DNA of 64,000 nt, taken from positions 97,030,001-97,094,000 of the forward strand of contig OZ336878.1 in assembly GCA_965287045.1 (NCBI GenBank), read 5' to 3'. Origin of the DNA: Carcharhinus amblyrhynchos (Eukaryota). The position numbers and the translations under genes were made by a program. This document shows positions 1 to 46,700 of this stretch, one piece after another. Below the pieces are notes generated by a model, which did not search any database, had not been told where the DNA came from, and saw only the letters and a program-made list of their open reading frames with translations. Positions within the stretch are counted from its first letter, which is position 1, and every line of letters starts with the position of its first letter.

Positions 1-3000
1 CACCTCAAAACAGTGTACAAAACCAAGAACATTAAGGCCAAATGTTCTTGATGTGGTAAGTATGGGGAGTTCCACTCTATTGCCTGCCACTACCCGAAAT
101 GTCAGGGTGAGGGTCGATCCTTGATAGTTGGGCAATATCAGTGCAGTGCTTGTGAGTTGGCCTTCACAACAGAGAATGGACTCAGCCAACACGAGAGACA
201 CGGTCATCCAGTTCTTCACAATGAGAAACGCGCGAAGAAAGCACTGCCTAAAACCACAACCAAATGGGGTAAAAACATGAGTGTATGGTCCGAGGAGGAG
301 GAATCACTCCTCAAAGAGCTTGAAAAGAGATTTGCTGGTGCCTGGTTTATAAATAAAGAGATTGCCAGTATTTTAACATCTAAAACTGGCAAGCAAATCT
401 CAGATAAGCGCAGGTTGCTTGCAATTGCATGCAAAACAGCAAACACTGCAACACGGGCAGATGTTGATGTACATCCGGATTCCGAGCAAGAACAGGAACC
501 GGAAGAGGCAGATGTCGGGAGCCCAGCCCCGCATGTAAGTATCGCTGGTAAACCTCCGGACCGAGTCCCTAAGTATAGGGACGTGGATGAACACCTGATC
601 CAGGTGGAGGAGCTCCTGAATGCAAGGAATGATCCCGACAAACATGTCTTAGCAGTGGGTATAGTCGAGAGCATCACTGACCTTCTGATGGACGATGAGA
701 CAAACAGGCAAAGAAAGAACGGTCTGACGGCAAAGGTACCTAAGAAAGGCACTCGGAAGGTAAGGCACGAGGTCAACAGCGGAGCCAGAAAGTGATGGGC
801 AAAACAGAAATCCGTTTTCAGAGCAACTCAGCTGCTCTAGAAGAACAACAGGCGCCAGCTGGCCCGTCAAATCACGGGCATGCCGTCACAAATCACTTGT
901 CCACTATCCATAACTGAACTGGAGGCAAGCTTTTGGGAGAAACTCTCCAGCCAGAACAATAAGGCAAATATAAGCAAAAACACACCATACAGCGGGCAAA
1001 CGGATAAGGGTGAGTTGATGAAGCCGATCACCACAGAAGAGGTTATCCAAGCCATCTAGGGTACTAAGGAGGCAAGTGCACCTGGACCAGATGGTCAAAA
1101 GTTGGAAGACATCCGAGACATCCATGAGGCATATGAGACCCGTATATCTCGCCTCTTCACTCTGTGGTTGGCCTCGAGAACAATCCCGAACTGTATGAAA
1201 CAGAGTTGGACAGTCCTTATCCCAAAGTGCCAGGATAAGGAACGGCTGAAAAGCATTGACAACTGGTGTCCAAATACGATCGGCCCAATGCTGCTACTAC
1301 GCCTCTTTGCCAAGATCACGGCGAAGAGACTGAGTGAGATAGTCGAAATAAACCCATGGCAGAAAGGGTTTTTAGCAGCAACTCCCGGATGCAACGAGAA
1401 CTTCGCAGTGTTGCAAAACATCATGAAGGGAACTAAGAAAAATCACAAGGACCTGGCCATTGTTTTTGTGGACCTGGCAAAAGCGTTCGACTCGGTGGGG
1501 CACAAGCTGGTCATCAGGTCATTACAAAGAACAAAGCTACCAAACGCCTTTGTAGAGCTTATTCAGGACCTCTGCACTGGCAACACAACGGTGGTCGAGG
1601 GCACAAAGTCCAAGACCGCCCCAGTAAACATTGAGAGGGGTGTCAAGCAGGGAGACCCGCTCTCTCCAATATTATTCAACATTCAAATGGATCCACTGAT
1701 ATGTAGTCTCGAAGAGGCGAGATCTGGTGTCAGCATGACGCTAGATGGAGCAAGAGTCAACTGCTCAGCCCTTGCATTTGCGGATGACATTGCCCTGCTT
1801 AGTGATTCATACGTCGGGATGACCCGTAACCTGAAGATTCTCCAGTCTTTTTGCGACTCGACAGGTCTGGCTGTCAGCACCAGCAAGACCAAAGGCTTCC
1901 ACTTTACCTGTAAGAGGAAGACCTTCATATACAATCAATGCAAGAACTGGCAGATTCGGAAGGAAGATATTGCATACATCCCCCCAGGAGAGGCTGAGAA
2001 ATGCCTGGGAGCCCAGATGGATCCATGGGCTGGCGTAGAAGAAGGTGCATGGGAAGAGAGACTGAAGGCCTGGATTTCCAGCTTACAGGCAACAGCTCTT
2101 CGGCTGAGGCAACGAGTAGAGCTGTTTACAGTCCATGTCATTCCGAGGCTATATTTTCATTTGATCCTGTCAGAAGCGTCTCAGAATATCCTTATTAAAC
2201 TGGACCAACTGATCCGTAATGCTGTCAAGCAGTTCATGCACCTTCTACCCCATACAACATATGGCATCCTCTATTCACGGGTTCGGAATGGAGGTTTGGA
2301 AATTCCCAAGCTGGAGATCCAAATACCATCTGCAGTGATCTGAAAATGGGAGTCGCTGTCTGCCTCCAATGACTGAGTCATTCACGCCTCTTTCCAGTTC
2401 TTTGAACAGAACATTGACGAGAGCATCAAAGAACTGCGGTCTCAAGGCATTGAGAGAGATCGAGGACTTCATGCCAACGAATGAAGAGAGCAGCAATGAT
2501 GAAACGGAGTCATTGAACATGATCAGAGCCGCATTACCAACACTCGATGCGGAGGAGGCAGGTCCCAAGAAACCAGTGAACAATTATGCAGGGTGGAGGG
2601 AATGGGAGTTCTGCAAGTGGAGGCAGCTACCCTCTCGAGGCATCGGAATGCACTACTATAATAATGACAAAATTTCAAACAGTTGGATTAAGGCTGCATA
2701 CCAGCTGAAATCACATTGCTTCCTTAATAACTTGCTACTCAGGTGCAATCTGTATCCCACAAGGGTGACCCTGTCAAGAGGGAATCCCTTCACCACTAAA
2801 ACCTGCCGAAGGTGTGAAGCGGGTTTAGAAACTCTGAGTCACATTTCTGGCCGTTGCCCGTTTGTTAAGAACTGCCAGATTAAACGCCACAATAAGATCC
2901 TGGAACAGCTGCGCAACTACGTTGGAAAATACGGCTGGACATCCTACCTTGAACCATGAATTATCACCAAAGATGATTATCACCAAAGGCTCCCTTTGGA

Positions 3001-3327
3001 AGCCAGACATCGTCTTCAAGAGGGAGAAAGACCAAAGGGTTGCAGCGTTGGATGTGACGGTTCGGTTCGAAGACAATTGCAGCAGTCTGGAGAAGGCGTG
3101 GCAGGAAAAGTGCCAGAAGTACCAACACCTCGGACCGGAGGTTGAAAAACTGACTGAATGCCAGAATCCCCAGTTCAGTTGTTGGCGCCTGGCGTAAGTG
3201 GCTGGAAAAGAACAACAGCCTCATGACCTTCCTGGGAATAAAGTGATTCCAATCATTCGCCCAACAAATTTCAAGGCTCACTTTGTCGCTTACGTTGGAG
3301 CTACTGGGGATCTTCAACGACAGGTGA
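1..3327 (+). pseudogene. Disrupted single R2 ORF (ZnF-Myb-RT-CCHC-RLE)
   Basis: In-frame stops at 49, 793, 838, 1057 and 2341. Frameshifts near 2400-2440, ~2960-2990 (tandem duplication of ATTATCACCAAAG) and ~3175. Ends VVGAWRKW...LELLGIFNDR* at 3327. Confidence 0.9.
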
Positions 3328-3624
3328 GAGGTGACTGAGACCATTAGACAAGCTGGCCACTTGTCAGACCATTGGGCTTATAGCCCGCCAGGAGGCCATA
3401 TGAACTTATATGGTGGACTCTTTGTTAATTGTTTGTATTGTCTGTGTATGTCAATTTTTATTCTTTGATGACACCTATTCCATCTACAGGTGCTACAGTC
3501 CACCTTGTTGACCAACAAGGGACGTGCACTCGGTGGGTCGTGGTTGGATGGCTCTTGGGTGTTGATTCGAGAGGTGCCCAGTCCGTCACATCCGTTAGCG
3601 TATGCTAATTATGGACTGGTCAAT

Positions 3625-3831
3625 GGGCAACACGTCACCTCAGTGGTTAGCACTGCGTGCTGGGCAGTTACAGAGGTCCAGGACGGATTTCTGACTTGGG
3701 TTAATGTCTGTGGGAGTTTGCACATTCTCCCCGTGTTTGCGTGGGTTTTCCCCGGCACTCCGTTTTTCTCCCACATCCGAAAAACGTGCTTGTTAGGCTG
3801 ATTGGCGACAATAAATCGTCCTGTAATTGGA
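3625..3831 (+). mobile_element. V-SINE (HE1-like) inside the R2 3' UTR
   Basis: tRNA-like head (CAGTGGTTAGCACTG) and V-domain (TGTGGGAGTTTGCACATTCTCCCCGTGTTTGCGTGGGTTTT...CTCCCACATCCGAAAAACGTGC...GTTAGG). Confidence 0.8.
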
Positions 3832-6070
3832 TTCCCCTTAATTCGGCATGAACGTAATCCTCTAAATTTCCACCCTCGTCATTATGAGGGTTCTTGTGCA
3901 CTCGGTACCGACAACCTGGCCCATCAGTAGGCCCCTATTAGATCTGGAATGACTCTAGACGGCTAGTTATACTATCTCTAGCTTCGACAACAGCTCACGT
4001 TCCTCAATCAAGATCAGTGGGCCCTTGACTGTGGTTCCGCTAGAGGTAGTCAAAACCGTCGACGAGCGACGTAAAGACTCGAACAAGGCACTCATTGAGT
4101 GTATTAAAGTAAGCCTGACAGGGAAGGTTATGGGAAAATGCATTTTATGGTAAATATCATGCTGGAGTTAGCGGAAATGAAAGAGAAATAAAATGTGATG
4201 TCAATATTCCCTCTTATTGATGTTATCGAACAACTTTGTTTCCATTCTTGATCATTTATCCCACATAAGAGAGCTCCATATATCTTCTCTCACACATTTC
4301 AATGTTTGCTTTTCAGAAAAAATCACACGGCCAACCGCCGCGATCATTCTGAAGGCTCTCGGCTTGACGCCAAACACCTCTTAAATCTCTAATTTTTCGT
4401 CATTATGTTTATTGTTTTATTTATCCGCCATTCAATTCACTTGCACTTCTCAACACGCAAGATGAGTTTCGACCATGCTCGATCATGAAACCATCCAGCT
4501 TTCAGCCGATCGCTCATGAACCCCAGCTGCCAACTTCTGAGTGCCATAGACCATCTGTTATGCAAATTAATGCTGATAGGCAAAGTTCTGGGAAATACAT
4601 TTTACGGTTGATGTCATGCGGAAGTTGGGAGAAATAGTAGAACATTTATTGGATAATATTGATACTGTTTCTTTCCGATGTTATGTTTCATCTAGGTAAT
4701 GATCGTTTTCTTGTTTTCATTATGTTCCACGTGCTGAAAAAAATCCTTCAATCTAAAAACATGGCAGCGTTCGGATTACGCATAATATCCCGCAGAATTA
4801 CTAAACTGAAATGCTGGAATGTTGTGTATGCTACCACACGACGCACATCTTCTTAAAGATGTGTTCCTGTCAAATTCTGAACTAAATCTAGTTCAGAGAG
4901 AAAAAAAAAATCACATAGAGATTGAAGACCGGAGGCAAAATCAACCACATGAAATAGTTCGCAAAGCAAACGTCACTTAGTGGATAGGTAAACTTAAATA
5001 GATTAATGGACCAGAGTTATTTTGCACTTCTTTTTCTCTTCTACGTCTTCATTTATTTATGAGTAGAATTTCAAAACGGCTCAAGGCGCCCACTGGTAGC
5101 GAGCAAGAGAGCATTAAACACAGCGTCTGACAAAAACAACATGCAGCATTAAATGAGAAATATGTTATTGTAATGCAGGTTTTTCGCTAACAGGAAAAAT
5201 GATAATTCTTTCCGCGACTCAAGAAAATGCAATTTGAAAATATTCACCTTTAGCCGAAGAAAGACTTTAATGTTCTTCCTGGAGGCCCGACACCTCTGAC
5301 TGACCAGCACGCACCTGAACAGGTAAGATGTCCATGGAGCAGGTTCGACCTTGTTCAACTTTCCAGTTTTCACCTAACCACTCATGAATCCTTCTGACGG
5401 CTAAACACCGCCCATTTTGCAATCATAACGCAAGTGTTCACTCCGCAATACTACAAATGCAAAATTATGTGGATAGTGCAAATCTGAACTGAAAACAGAG
5501 AGCTTCGAGAAACATTAGACACGAAACAACAGCTCGGCTTCTGTCAGATTTTCCCAGAACATTAATGTGGTTTCGGCACTTTTACCTTTACGTCCGTTCG
5601 CACTGACTGCATGAATATGTTACCAGTAAATTGATGTAATCGGCAGTGCATCAAGGCACTTCCAGAATTTTGCCGATCAGTCACAAAGATTGAGATCATT
5701 CTCTCCCAGTAATTTGAAAACACAGACCTCAATCGCTGCGAAAGGCCCCGGGTAGCCCCAGGAGCAGAGATGGTAGCCAGCAATCTCCATGATGTTAGTG
5801 AAAGTGTGAAATGATGCATCGTCACAGGAAATTGAGGTTGAATAGAACTAGCGAACTTCAGGAGATCTGTAATTGTGGAAAGTGACAAGAGAAGCGTTTG
5901 ATTTCTGGAGCATCAGAGTGACTTTTAAGGGCAATAGTTATGAAGGAAATATATATATGACTGAACGTTTCACCATCAATGCATGTTTCCGTCACACAAA
6001 GATTCTCCTCTGCTTTTGTTTTGTATTGTTTGAGCATGAGCTGCAGAGAGACAAACATTTAAAAAGCTAT

Positions 6071-31469: not shown

Positions 31470-34199
31470 GCCACACATCGCTTGCTGCGCTAACTTGTGC
31501 CCGACTAGCTCAATACGTCCATGATGTGCTGATGCCAGAGCTGGACTGGGCTGTGCGCAGTAAGAAGCCTCACAACACCAGGTTAAATTCCAACAGGTTT
31601 ATTTGGAATCACGAGCTTTGGAAGGTGTACTTCGTCCAAGCAACCCTGCAACTAAATACAACATAGCTTTGGCTCGGATATCACAGAAGAAAGGTTTCAG
31701 CTTCCAATCCGATGGCGGCTAAGGGAAAATTTGACTCTTTCAGGACACGTTCAGATGGAAACTCATTTTCGATCTCTCTACATATTCCTTCAAAATTCTC
31801 TAGTATTTCCACTATGTTCTTTCATGTGTGCATGCTACAATGACAGAGTTTTCCTGTTCATCGCCTGCCATCCTCGAGGCACAGAATTGAGTGGAGAGAT
31901 AAATACATTTTACAATCACTTAGCTTAACGGTTCAATTAAACCTGACTTTGGTAGATGTTGAAGCTGTGAATGCCATTGTTCTGTGGTCGTGGGTACAAT
32001 TCAGATTCTGCCACCTATACGCCCTTACAACGAACCCGCTCCCTTCGCCTTGAACGAAATCGTCGGAAATGTTGCAGATTCATTCGCAAAATCTCACCAC
32101 ATACCACAGACGTTCGAAGTCTGAACGAGAAACAGCAACTGTTCACGTAAACCGCTGCAATTTTCGAAAGACAAATGGTTCTCAGGAATTCTCTGAGAAC
32201 CAAGTTTGTAGCCGCTCAATCATCAAGCCTTTGTTTTCATCCTGGTGATCTCAGCAAGAGCTGAAGTCATCTTGAATCGCTATGCCATCCATAACCTGGC
32301 TCTTAAATTCAAGACTCGTTTGAAAAAAGGAGGGAGACAGAAAGCAAGACGCAACATGTCACATGGGCTAAAGTCCAAGTCTCGCATTGGGAAATTGTTA
32401 GCAATCGTTACTTAGAAATACCATAGTGGGACGCTTGAAAGGCTCAATGCTATACCTTTTTGCAAGGGAAAGCATACTTGACCAATTTATTGGAGTTATA
32501 TGTGTTGTGAATTAAGGAAAACTGCTGGATGCACGATCCTTAGATTTCCAGAATCCTTTTGTTTTAGTGGTTGGGCCAAGGGATATTCTCCAAATAAGCC
32601 TGACAGGCGAGGTAATGGGAAAATGCATTTTATGATAGACATCATGCTGAAGTTAGCAGAAATGAAAGAGCAATATAAGGCGATGTCGATCCCAGTTACC
32701 AAACGGCTATACTTCCTTTCTTGAGTATTTACCTCACATAAAAGACTCCATTTTTTTTTACATCCTTTTCAATGATTGCTTTCCAAAGAAAATATCGTTC
32801 GTTTTGGTGTTTTTTTTTACGAGGTGGCAATTAGTCTTAGGAAACTAATGTCACAGTACAAAAGGTAAAACATTAAATTAAAAACCAGTGATCAATGGAA
32901 GAAGCTATCTCAGTGGTCACAGATACACGGAACTCTTGGATAGGGTTCTGAAGTTATCAGTAAAAAAAAAGAACAGTTATACATTTTCTTTATCAGGCTT
33001 ATCCCACACTTCACTGGTTTCAAATTAATTTTGTTTGGTATACACAGGTTAATGCAAATCTCCATCTAGTACCTCAAACAACCATATTTTCCTTTTCAGC
33101 ATGATGTTTCTCGGAAACATCATTAAACTCGGAAGCTAACCCTCTTTTTGTCTAAAGTTTCTTCCCTATTGCCTGGTTACGGTAGCCGCTCCAGTAAGGG
33201 TCAAATTGGATGTTTCCACCAGCTTACTGCCAAGCTGAATATTCATTTGTTCCTGCATCCAGGGCCATATCTATTCTGTGTCTGGGCAGTGATGGAACAT
33301 ATTCATTATTATTGCAAAATGTGTTCCCTCATAATAATTTCCATATTTGTGTTCTGCTAGCTCACGGGTTTCCAGGTATGTGGCTCTCAACATTTTACCA
33401 TTGCGCCTTTCAGTAACGTGCATTGGCCAAGTTGTCCAATCACAGTAAAATACTTGAAATACATGTGGAATATCAACTTACATGTTTTAAAATAATCGTA
33501 GCTTATGATTTAAAATCATAGTAGCTTGCATCTAGATATGTGTTATCATTTAACTCTTTAATGTTAGCTCTGCCCGTGACTGTATGCTGTCTAAAAGCTA
33601 AGAGAAATGTAAAATAATCACTTTCATGTGCCATGTTCGTTTTGAAGGATTTTCACATAACACAGAATATCTTCTAAACCTCTCATTTCCCATCACAATA
33701 TTTATTGATTTAATCATTTGCCATTCAGTTCACTCGCACTTTTCAACAGATAAGATTTCAGACAATCGCTCATAAACGCCAGCTGACATCTTCTGAGTGC
33801 AAAACAACATCTATTTTGCAAATATAAGTTAATTGTTCACTTACCATTACAGTAAAGGCGGCTGTTGGAATTCTGAAATGAAAACAAAACTGTTGCAGAA
33901 CATTGGCCTCAAGGCGTCAATTCGGTTACTTTCTCCATAGATGTGAGACCGTCAGTTAGCAATACAAGTTCCCACTAAAATGTCGTATTGCCATCACGTC
34001 AAAGCACTTCCAGCAATTTGCCCATGATGGGTCAGAAAGATCGAAATGTTCCTGTTCAAATATGTTCAAAGCACATCGTGTGAAACGGATCCGTGCAACC
34101 CCAGAAAGATGGCAGCCAACAAACTCCCCGGTGTTACTGAAAGCGTGAGACATTGCAATACGACAAGGAAGTGAGGATAGAATGGAAGCAGCGAAGTAA

Positions 34200-38029: not shown

Positions 38030-38101
38030 TGCCGTGACTCGGATTCGAACCGAGGTTGCTGCGGCCACAACGCAGAGTACTAACCACTATACGATCACGG
38101 C
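38030..38101 (-). tRNA. trnH-GUG: tRNA-His(GUG), intact
   Basis: Exact reverse complement of the canonical sequence; T8 terminator immediately 3' (A-run at 38022-38029 on +). Confidence 0.98.
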
Positions 38102-38683
38102 GCCACAGAACAACTGCTGCAGAAACACTTGCTCATTTCAAGCCATATTCGGGTCCCCAGTTGAACCATAGCTCTCTGGAAAGCAACCAAAACAGAAGTG
38201 CTGGAAAATAGTAGCGGGCCTGCCAGTTTCTGAGAGAGAACAGAGCTCAACGTTTCGAGTCCGCATCATTCTTCATCAGCTCCGTGCATCATTCTAAACA
38301 CGCCGGCCAGCAACCGCATTTCTGTTCTCAGTACCGATATATTTCAAACCAACTTTTTATTTGTTAAAATAAAGCAGAGTTAGCGCAGATGGGTCAGCTC
38401 TTTTTTTCCTGTTTGGACAATTGACATCGATGTCTTCGAGGAGTGGCCGGTGTGCAGGCTGGGGGTGCTTTTAGGTTTTTGGGTGGTCTCCTGGTAAGCC
38501 TAGCAGAGGAGGTTATGGGAAAGTGCATTTTATGGTAGATATCATGCTGGAGTTAGCGGGAAAGGAAAGGAAAATAAAGATGTGATGTTTACACTCCCTC
38601 GTTTCACTGTTACCGAACAACTTCGTTTCCTTTCTTGATTATTTATCTCATGGAAGGGTGTTCCATACACCTCACACACATGT

Positions 38684-43719: not shown

Positions 43720-46700
43720 GTCACCAGTGGCATGGTGCACCATTTGTTGTCTGATTAAAGTATTATGCCCACCCAGACCAGCAACTCAAGGACAACATTC
43801 TTTCGATCGGCCAGGTTATCACAATGGAATCGTTTCAGCTTTCAAACCGTTAGCTGCTGACTGACAGTTCGTCTTCCGAATGACCTGTTCGGATTGAATG
43901 CCATGTTTTTTTTTCTAACTCTCCACAAATCCTTTTAGGATTGTTTTGTTCTTGGAACAAAATCTGTTCTTATTGCATGTGACACACGACGTGGTTTTCA
44001 TGTTCATTGCTTGCGGACCTCAGAGATAAAATTGTGTGTGTGTGCGCGTGTGTGTGTGGGGTGGCGGGCGTGGGGGGCGGGGAGGAACTAAATGTAGTTT
44101 ACACTCACTTGTTTTGGCGATGTCACAAGACTGTAAGGTTTTAGTGGAAAGTGTAATTACTTCACTCTTTCCAATTTGGCATGTCCACTACGTGACTCAC
44201 AACTTTTGCAGATGAACCATAGGAAGTACTCTTTCTTGTTGTATCACAGCTTGGAATGGCTTCTTCTCTGTCCAAGACTGCAAGAAACTACAAAATGTTA
44301 TGAACGAAGCCCAGTCAATCACGCAAACCAGCCTCCCATTCATTGATGCTGTCTACACTTCCCGCTGCCTCGGAAAAGCAGCCAGCATAATGAAGGACCC
44401 CACTCACCTTGGACATTCTCTCTTCCCTTTTCTTCCGTTGGGAAAAAAATGGAGAAGTCTGAGGTCATGCACTAATTGATTCTTGAACAGTTCCTTCCCT
44501 ACTGCCAAAGGACTTTTGAATGGCTTTATCTCCTTTTAAGTTATCTTTCTCTACACCCTAGCTAGCACCACCCGTCTTTACTGTAATGCTACGGGAACAA
44601 TTGGGTTATATTTGCAAAATCGATGGTGCTTGACACTCAGAGGTTGTCAGCTGGGGTTCATGAACGATGGCCTGAAACCAAAACTGCTCAAAAGTGCTAC
44701 TGAACTGAATGGCAAATTATTGAAACAATAAATAGAGTGACAGGAAGTGAGAAATTTTGAACAGGTTTTGCATTATGAGAAAAGACTTCAGAATGAACAT
44801 TCCACCCAGCCCTGCAACTACTGGTGAACGTTTCAACCTGTTGGCCGGGTAACAACAGAATAATAGTTTGGTCTACAAACAGAGCGCTGCTGACTGAAAT
44901 CCCGAATCAATTATGATCCGTTGAATTGGAGGCTTTTTTTTTAACTTTTCACATATACTTTCACAATTGTTCAGTACTTCCAGCATATTCTGTACATGTT
45001 ACACATGAAGGGGTTTTTCTGTTCCCTGCCTGCCGACCTCAGCGCACAGAATTGAGTGAAGCATATCGTATTTTATAATTACGTACGTAAGTGATGCGAA
45101 TAATTCTGCCTTTCCTGCATCCTTGTTATTAAGCTGGATGTTCAAAGTCCTTGGATCCGAGTCGGATTTCTCTCCCCATCCCCGCCCCCACGCCCCCGTG
45201 ACCCCCCCCCCCCCTCAAAAAAATGTCATTTATCTTCCAGCTTAATTGGCACAATCTAATAAAGCACCGCAGATGTTGAAAATCTGAAATGAAAACAGAG
45301 ACTGTTGAGGTGGACTGAAAGCCTGGCAGCAGATTTCGAAAGAGGAACAGCTTTCAGGAATTCCCTGACAACCAAGTTATTCGCCGCTTAACCACGAAGC
45401 CTTTCTTTTCACCAAGGAATCAGACTCAGATTTGTCTGTGATGTTAGCAAAAAAGGAAATCATCACCAATCGCCGTATCATCCATAGCATCCGGTGCTCA
45501 AATTCAAGACTGGTTTGAAAATGGAAGGGAGAGAAAAAGCAGGAAACAACGGGTCACCTAGACTAAAGTCTAGCATAAGGGGAATATTAGCAATCGTTAC
45601 TTCGAAGTGTTATAGCGGAACACTTGCAAACGTTCAAGGCTAGCATGCCTTTTGTGAAAGTAGAAACATGTTTGACCAATTTATTGTCGTTACAGTTTCT
45701 GGAGATTAAGGGAATCTGTTGGATGTACCTTAGATTTCCAGAAGTCTTTTGATATAGCTTGTGGGTTGCGAGAAGTGCTCTAGGTAAACCTTATGGGGAA
45801 ATGCATTTTATGGTAGGCGTCCTGCTGAAGTTCGCGGAAATGAAAGGTCAATAAAATGTGATGGCGATCGCTGCTGCCAAACGGCTTCATTTCCTTTCTG
45901 GAGTATTGATCTCTTAAAAGAGTATTCCGTACATTTTCTTACACTCCTGTTAATGTTTATCTTTCGAAAAACCACATCGTGCTCTGTTAGCGGGGTTTTC
46001 CATGACATGACAATTAGTTTCAGGAAACCAGCGGCACACTACAAAGCTAAAAAAATTATTAAAATCAATGATCAATGGGAGAACCCGGACCTCTTGGACA
46101 AATTCTGAAGTTATCAGTAAAAGTACGGAAGTTACGTATTTTCTTGATCAGATATTCCGTCCGTCATTAGTTTAAAATTAATTTCATCAATGCACACATC
46201 AATATTAATCTCTGTCAAGTACCTCAGCTAATTTCATTCACTCTCCAGCATGATGGTTTCTCGTGTATACTTTAAACTCGGATATTAACTCTCTTTTGGG
46301 GTAAAGCTACTTGCCCCTGGCTTGGTTACGGTGCATGCTACAGGGTCCAAGTGGATGTTCCCACCAGCTTGCTTCCAAGCTAAATAGACATGTGTTCCTG
46401 CATCCAGGGTCATATGTATTGTGTCCGGGCAGCGACTGAATCTATTCATCACTCCACCGAAATTTGCATTAGTAAAGAGGTAGCACTCGAAAAATTAATT
46501 GGATAAAAAGTTGACAAATCCAATTGACTAGATGGATCCACTGAGCATCCCAGAAAGTGAAAGTTTTGACTATAGAGATAATGGATGCTTTGGTGCTTTC
46601 CTTTCAAAATTCTGCAGATATTGGAAAGTTTCATGCAGACTCGAAAATAGCTAATTAACTCCTACTATTACAGAAGGAAGGGATCAATAACATTTAGATC

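Follow-up and report, generated by a model that had tools for sequence, protein, structure and literature searches.

The stretch analyzed here, hereinafter the window, comprises 64,000 nucleotides (nt) of the genome of the shark Carcharhinus amblyrhynchos (contig OZ336878.1, positions 97,030,001–97,094,000; G000:C9:97030001-97094000 in our numbering). It opens with the 3′ part of a copy of R2, the textbook site-specific retrotransposon, and continues into a decayed array of tRNA-His genes (Table 1). The R2 copy begins 786 nt to the left of the window (G000:C9:97029215) and, with a total length of 4,894 nt, is full-length. It is dead, displaying eight stops and three frame changes when aligned to the shark protein P0005, and shares 91–92% identity with its nearest family copies. 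An earlier note on the window had proposed a clade-A R2 outside the ribosomal DNA (rDNA) at a motif resembling the 28S target, and had offered either a lineage retargeted to the tRNA spacer or an off-target insertion at a mimic site; the census of insertion sites and their 28S likeness, given below, support the second option.

In the family, three N-terminal zinc fingers, ZnF3-ZnF2-ZnF1 (CCHH, CCHC and CCHH), precede a Myb domain, as read from the translation and from an alignment of the sister copy L077 with R2Tg; the last histidine of ZnF3 is changed in the window copy. The C-terminal region is read in the open reading frames (ORFs) 2339-2959 and 2838-3197 (43–56% to P0005), and we take its motifs to be a CCHC knuckle and a PD..D endonuclease motif. 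The 931-aa natural frame of L077, the length of which is exceeded by no stop-free frame among 18 long family copies, scores 468 bits to R2Tg versus 192 to 8gh6, presumably R2Bm. The closest database proteins come from sharks, and in a quick reverse transcriptase (RT) tree (43 rows, without named clade references) the family falls inside a shark clade among vertebrate homologs, together with shark lineage-A proteins (Shimodaira–Hasegawa-like approximate likelihood ratio test, SH-aLRT, 97). These sequence comparisons support the placement of the window element in R2 lineage A, as the earlier note had it. Site-specific nicking and target-primed reverse transcription (TPRT) would be expected of such a family, the window copy itself being dead. 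The segment at ~3625-3810 in the 3′ untranslated region (UTR), which is common to most family copies and a fixed part of this region, also matches dispersed flank sequence at 74–78%; it presumably resembles a short interspersed element (SINE).

At the 5′ end of the family we predict a hepatitis delta virus (HDV)-like double pseudoknot, the P1 helix of which is formed by the 28S leader from −28 to −23. Across 18 copies 87% of cells are paired and 14 cells are changed on both sides, a value reached by none of 500 shuffles, although the structure was drawn by hand from the same 18 sequences that were scored and the score is thus biased in its favor. Compensatory changes affect four of the six pairs of P2, while Rfam detected no ribozyme family at this end. 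On balance, the predicted fold supports a 5′ HDV-like ribozyme that draws on upstream 28S sequence, as befits a member of this R2 group.

Both junctions could be read. The element terminates in TATTAAA at 4108 with spacer sequence directly after it, just as the earlier note had claimed. On the left, the spacer half ends in TCTCCA and is followed by the 28S-derived leader, the first two G's of which are absent; a minus-strand tRNA-His gene lies 424 nt to the left of this junction, and both junction and gene had been predicted. The left and right flanks (93% and 92% identical) abut on the sister spacer copy 18751 with one base missing, and because of this the window copy is a true insertion between matching spacer halves.

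The array takes in positions 4109-46500 of the window plus 40 kb leftward. It is decayed, with 11 tRNA calls in 104 kb and units that are mostly 65–80% alike and interrupted by copies of a long interspersed element (LINE). The six empty spacer motifs of the earlier note lie at the places it gave. The flank matches best at 18750 (92%, 127 nt), 15271 (77%, 527 nt) and 38494 (81%, 193 nt), which lie 546, 448 and 393 nt, respectively, from minus-strand tRNA genes; the claimed proximity to tRNA-His is borne out by these distances, but the gene at 14748 is degenerate. A spacer search of the genome returned eight candidates, all eight in this array and within 60 kb on the same contig, and only the spacer with the window element is split by R2.

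Table 1. Features of the window, numbered from its first nucleotide
Feature	Position	Strand	Basis
Decayed lineage-A R2 copy	1..4108	+	Junctions, census, alignment to P0005
ZnF3 end (start left of window), ZnF2 (CCHC, ~43-102, one stop) and ZnF1 (CCHH, ~142-207)	1..207	+	Translation; sister L077 aligned to R2Tg N-terminal region
Myb-like domain	286..408	+	Pfam PF13921 E=0.004, below cut-off; R2Tg alignment via L077
Reverse transcriptase core	1285..1914	+	PF00078 E=5e-30
Presumed CCHC knuckle (~2804-2880), presumed PD..D restriction-like endonuclease motif (~3003-3070, past frameshift), ORF end	2804..3327	+	ORF reading; PF13966 E=2e-4, below cut-off
3′ UTR, with SINE-like segment inside (~3625-3810)	3328..4108	+	Family comparison
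Right half of spacer target site	4109..4235	+	92% to 18750-18875
Empty spacer motif, 15/40 upstream positions as in 28S	13051..13066	+	Motif reading, register score
Degenerate tRNA, anticodon unreadable	14748..14823	-	tRNA calling
Empty spacer motif, 14/40	15261..15277	+	Motif reading, register score
tRNA-His (GTG)	15843..15916	+	tRNA calling
tRNA-His (GTG)	18133..18204	-	tRNA calling
Empty spacer motif, nearest sister of filled site, 22/40	18711..18756	+	Motif reading, spacer search, register score
Empty spacer motif, GG -> AA, 12/40	32585..32600	+	Motif reading, register score
tRNA-His (GTG)	38030..38101	-	tRNA calling
Empty spacer motif, 12/40	38484..38500	+	Motif reading, register score
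Empty spacer motif, 13/40	45776..45790	+	Motif reading, register score

For the target sites, in-register matches to the 28S target of contig C201 were counted. Of the 38 upstream positions that the filled His spacer retains, 19 agree with 28S, including GTA at −21 to −19, a closer likeness than the earlier note had seen, and the junction geometry is near-canonical; the nearest empty sister of this site reaches 22/40 and the other five 12–15/40. A score of at least 19/40 with TA at +1/+2 occurs at 5e-5 of 2.58 million positions (a post hoc rate over overlapping loci). Hence, the filled spacer is a good mimic of 28S, though not unique at the scale of the genome.

Family copies are found on more than 20 contigs. 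They were gathered by a 3′ end search (best 40 of 147 candidates scored, yielding 30 loci), a 5′ end search (35 of 35 candidates scored) and a 3′-terminal pattern with 153 matches, of which the 100 listed, all examined, underlie the census. Counting the 153 pattern matches as insertions was rejected because 65 of the 100 listed belong to a single LINE-amplified chimera. With duplicates collapsed (five C43 copies and the 65 chimeric LINE copies counting as one event each), we recognize at least 40 distinct events among the loci examined: one in the His spacer, 16 at one LINE position (site 1; the left LINE flank of one of these, L005, is unconfirmed), three at a second (site 2), three at other LINE positions including the chimera, 10 dispersed with 28S at the canonical junction, and seven unclassified. 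The 10 events of the canonical class lie outside rDNA and have 28S beginning at exactly +1, as in a canonical 28S insertion, with three of them holding just 45–53 nt of R2 and another, L065, being of uncertain family. Multiple independent insertions at the His spacer were not found, a single filled copy accounting for 1/40 events. The C43 copies (L028, L055-L059) are an internally deleted R2 at LINE site 2, present in five repeats with a cluster of Trp, Ser, Asn and Ile tRNA genes, and represent one insertion duplicated with its tRNA array.

The host LINE of sites 1 and 2 encodes apurinic/apyrimidinic endonuclease (APE) and RT domains and is, from its motifs and tail, what we take to be CR1. 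Site 1 corresponds to the ORF2 codons for KKGSRDNPG-NYRPVSLTS, of which at least 834 empty sequences (with at most one mismatch) exist in one LINE subfamily alone. Background loci totaling 452 kb contain even a looser version of the motif only 12 times, i.e., at ~1.3e-5 of positions, versus 16/40 events. The insertions at LINE sites are not one amplified composite. The R2 copies at site 1 are spread over several branches of the R2 trees, and the filled LINE flanks mix with empty copies in both flank trees (nine filled rows with 16 and 19 of the 20 empties passing the length filter). For the left as for the right flanks, a tree that unites all filled copies in one clade is rejected (approximately unbiased (AU) test, p<1e-5), and the 5′ junctions vary from clean to truncated, duplicated or bearing a captured piece. 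A single amplified LINE::R2 composite as the source of the site-1 copies was rejected on these grounds. Among the shark homolog proteins no LINE-R2 fusion at site 1 was found, only generic RT similarity of 21–26%.

A distinct case is a chimeric LINE, a CR1-type subfamily with ~650 nt of the R2 3′ end between the ORF2 stop and a 60-nt tail (L163, L181 and others). Amplification has produced at least 65 copies of it (65 of the 100 listed pattern matches), which are 5′-truncated and share 41–1,748 nt upstream of the R2 end, some of them being segmental duplicates. Here one R2 insertion became part of the LINE 3′ UTR and was then amplified.

In-register likeness to 28S extends to the LINE sites. 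The 19 empty site-1 sequences average 20/40 matches and 5.6/7 in the core from −25 to −19; the register used, offset by one base, was picked post hoc. Two other registers were set aside, namely that with the nick directly before TAG (10/40) and that 6 nt upstream (6.6/40). LINE site 2 resembles 28S around the nick, with 22/38 matches in the C43 example. Across 11 distinct non-28S targets the match at −25 to −19 exceeds that of random junctions (sum 48, p=0.0014, with the null given the same freedom), and 10 of the 11 have T at −20. An absence of preference, as in the R2NS elements, is not what we observe: the sites cluster and match the core. The pattern parallels the measured off-targets of R2Tg, which have in common 4–5 downstream nt, a patch rich in pyrimidines around −9 and positions −19 to −25, where T at −20 stands out (PMC12222951). 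It likewise parallels the primer-pairing rule from PRINT, the off-targets of which share primer-complementary bases (PMC11371274), while A-clade ZnF1-Myb binding is described upstream of the nick only (PMC11204384).

Taken together, the dead full-length lineage-A R2 inserted once at a 28S-like tRNA-His spacer, probably as an off-target of an rDNA-born element with relaxed specificity, the main hot spot of which is one position in a CR1-type LINE. That hot spot likely arises because LINE site 1 also mimics the normal 28S target. By analogy with the R2Tg off-targets, PRINT and A-clade ZnF1-Myb binding, we infer the following course. The HDV-like ribozyme would free the RNA from an rDNA co-transcript by cutting at −28, and the RNA might retain a few 28S nucleotides at the 3′ terminus. 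For spacer binding the protein would rely on ZnF1, Myb and RT6a contacts near −38 to −19, with nicking at GG|TA or one base to the left and priming on TA, and the 5′ end would be joined ~2 nt upstream. Turnover of rDNA would purge on-target copies, while dispersed ones would persist and decay. Loss of copies may be quicker in rDNA than elsewhere in the genome (PMC13580325), so that extant counts give no off-target rate.

Several points weigh against this interpretation. Two R2 sub-clades of eight and five copies (bootstrap 100; clades X and Y, respectively) hold LINE-hosted copies only and no 28S-flanked ones; 28S-flanked copies make up 0/13 there versus 5/19, a post hoc comparison (p=0.06) that hints at a real shift of preference. 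Of the end-pattern matches, 53/153 lie outside the census. The 11 targets were hand-picked, excluding the chimera site and recurrent hits at a LINE site already represented, and where an empty homolog is absent the deletion size was chosen by best fit, as it was in the null. tRNA genes are found within 1.5 kb of 2/40 events and nowhere in background loci of 409 kb, too few cases to interpret. Finally, no full-length family copy was found among the ~8 assembled rDNA units on C201, six of which are empty and two filled by a different 1.1-kb element; for this reason a master residing in rDNA is only inferred, with the rDNA likely under-assembled.

The strongest competing explanation, though in our view an unlikely one, builds on the first of these points and holds that one or two sub-lineages shifted their main target from 28S to the conserved codon stretch in ORF2 of the CR1-type LINE. 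Sense-oriented copies could use the host promoter and ribozyme release, with a LINE-derived 3′ tail pairing with further LINE copies. If true, R2 would be a site-specific parasite of another retrotransposon, possibly dependent on its promoter. In clade X seven of eight copies occupy site 1 and the remaining one another position of the LINE, and in clade Y four of five occupy site 1, with no 28S-flanked member in either; the 7/8 compares with 9/24 (p=0.04, again post hoc). Also in favor are the at least 834 empty sites in one subfamily and the clean 5′ junctions, at which the GG of the ribozyme leader is restored. However, the clade X leaders differ in the extent of 28S (to −9 or −7), and the 3′ junction of one copy of this clade shows TAGCC instead of the TAGAC of empty sites; this variation and the TAGCC junction point to rDNA-resident masters. 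Moreover, none of the 18 long copies has a stop-free frame beyond 931 aa, the samples are small and loss from rDNA could yield the same pattern.

A general loss of specificity, with near-random, R2NS-like insertion and LINE hits that merely reflect LINE abundance, is highly improbable. It would accommodate the spread over more than 20 contigs, the 7/40 unclassified events and the reported share of CR1-group elements in elasmobranch genomes (22–34%; PMC13343379), but is contradicted by the clustering of 16/40 events at a single position that represents ~1.3e-5 of the background, by the 10/40 events with a canonical 28S junction and by the above-chance match of non-28S sites to the −25 to −19 core. 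Retargeting of the lineage to the tRNA-His spacer, the first option of the earlier note, has still less to commend it. The clean insertion between matching halves, the strong 28S-like motif, the five array-duplicated C43 copies among Trp/Ser/Asn/Ile tRNA genes as a second event, and the precedent of the zebrafish tRNA-spacer-targeting element Dewa (PMC3706591) could be adduced for it. Yet all eight spacers belong to one decayed array with one filled versus six empty motifs, the insertion is 1/40 events, and the C43 copies occupy LINE site 2, which is a 22/38 mimic of 28S in its own right and different from the His spacer. Other family members sit in 28S or at unrelated sites, the very outcome that the earlier note had named as telling against retargeting, which is thereby largely refuted in this genome. 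Least credible of all is that the junction reflects rearrangement or misassembly, for although the region is repeat-rich and the locus known from the assembly alone, the two flanks adjoin on a sister copy, short of a single base, and the leader at the 5′ end is the one normal for the family.

Dewa is an APE-type element of the Tx1 group. Like it (tRNA-Leu spacer in zebrafish; PMC3706591), the shark R2 sits in a tRNA-array spacer, but Dewa is target-specific whereas the R2 family has a single spacer hit. The closest parallel is vertebrate lineage-A R2Tg (PDB 9dou, 9nl3; also 9nl2), with which the family shares three zinc fingers, Myb, RT, CCHC and endonuclease motifs, a 28-nt 28S leader, an HDV-like ribozyme and a similar off-target pattern (PMC12222951). 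In contrast to R2Tg, for which over 99% of insertions in human cells are reported in 28S or 28S-like sequence (PMC12222951), no fewer than 40 dispersed germline events survive in the shark family, and a single LINE position accounts for 16 of these. The shark lineage-A proteins P0001-P0006 (Scyliorhinus torazame and Chiloscyllium punctatum being among the sources) belong to the same clade with 44–69% identity. Several shark homologs lie on scaffolds of 0.25–4.4 Mb, and in the gene model P0041 an R2 RT is joined with a receptor gene, which weakly hints at R2 dispersal in other sharks. R2-derived families outside rDNA are also known in flatworms (R2NS-1_SMed and R2NS-1_CSi), but these members of clades D and C are described as non-specific (PMC5035012), whereas the shark family keeps 28S recognition and defined mimic sites. 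The extra-rDNA R1 and R2 copies of Drosophila likewise include non-28S insertions, often in repeats, and among the R1 copies upstream 28S ending at −9, sometimes with a few downstream 28S bases; the available portion of that study describes no recurrent single-position R2 hot spot in another LINE (PMC2718515). Lineages A and D of R2 in sharks, flatworm R2s without specificity and stray R1/R2 copies in Drosophila were already known (PMC13188248, PMC5035012, PMC2718515). Neither dispersed R2 in sharks nor an R2 hot spot in CR1 is reported in the literature searched, outside which lie most subscription papers and Repbase.

Further observations concern 28S-flanked and related sequences. In the dispersed copies L002, L003, L012, L016, L021, L068, L125, L134 and L138, downstream 28S extends for ~19–35 nt and upstream 28S for ~27–186 nt before unrelated DNA; the narrow downstream range may mark the end of read-through R2 RNA. 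All four dispersed empty 28S pieces found (L213, L220, L221, L222) start 15–20 nt upstream of the R2 site, the left limit of the search pattern being −18. An older R2 subfamily (66–70% identical), outside the 40 events, is also dispersed (L226-L230, L233, L234), and two of its copies, L227 and L228, have LINE site-1 flanks. The element that fills two of the eight rDNA units on C201 is 1,103 nt long (L075 on C201, L076, L224, L225; copies 94–99% alike), has only its last ~50 nt in common with the R2 family and no sense ORF above 89 aa, and displays an HDV-like core using the 28S leader; we regard it as a likely non-autonomous partner of R2. Another two ribozyme-like segments picked by eye failed a descriptor scan.

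The tRNA-array hit is a single accident of modest interest, and the recurrent single-position LINE target is the more interesting trait. Lineage-A proteins are under development for gene insertion into rDNA, and this genome preserves, as a natural record in the germline, off-target choices of lineage A that are in agreement with cell assays of R2Tg. It also names two testable 28S-mimic substrates in a very abundant LINE, and the data suggest a route by which a new multicopy target could be acquired.

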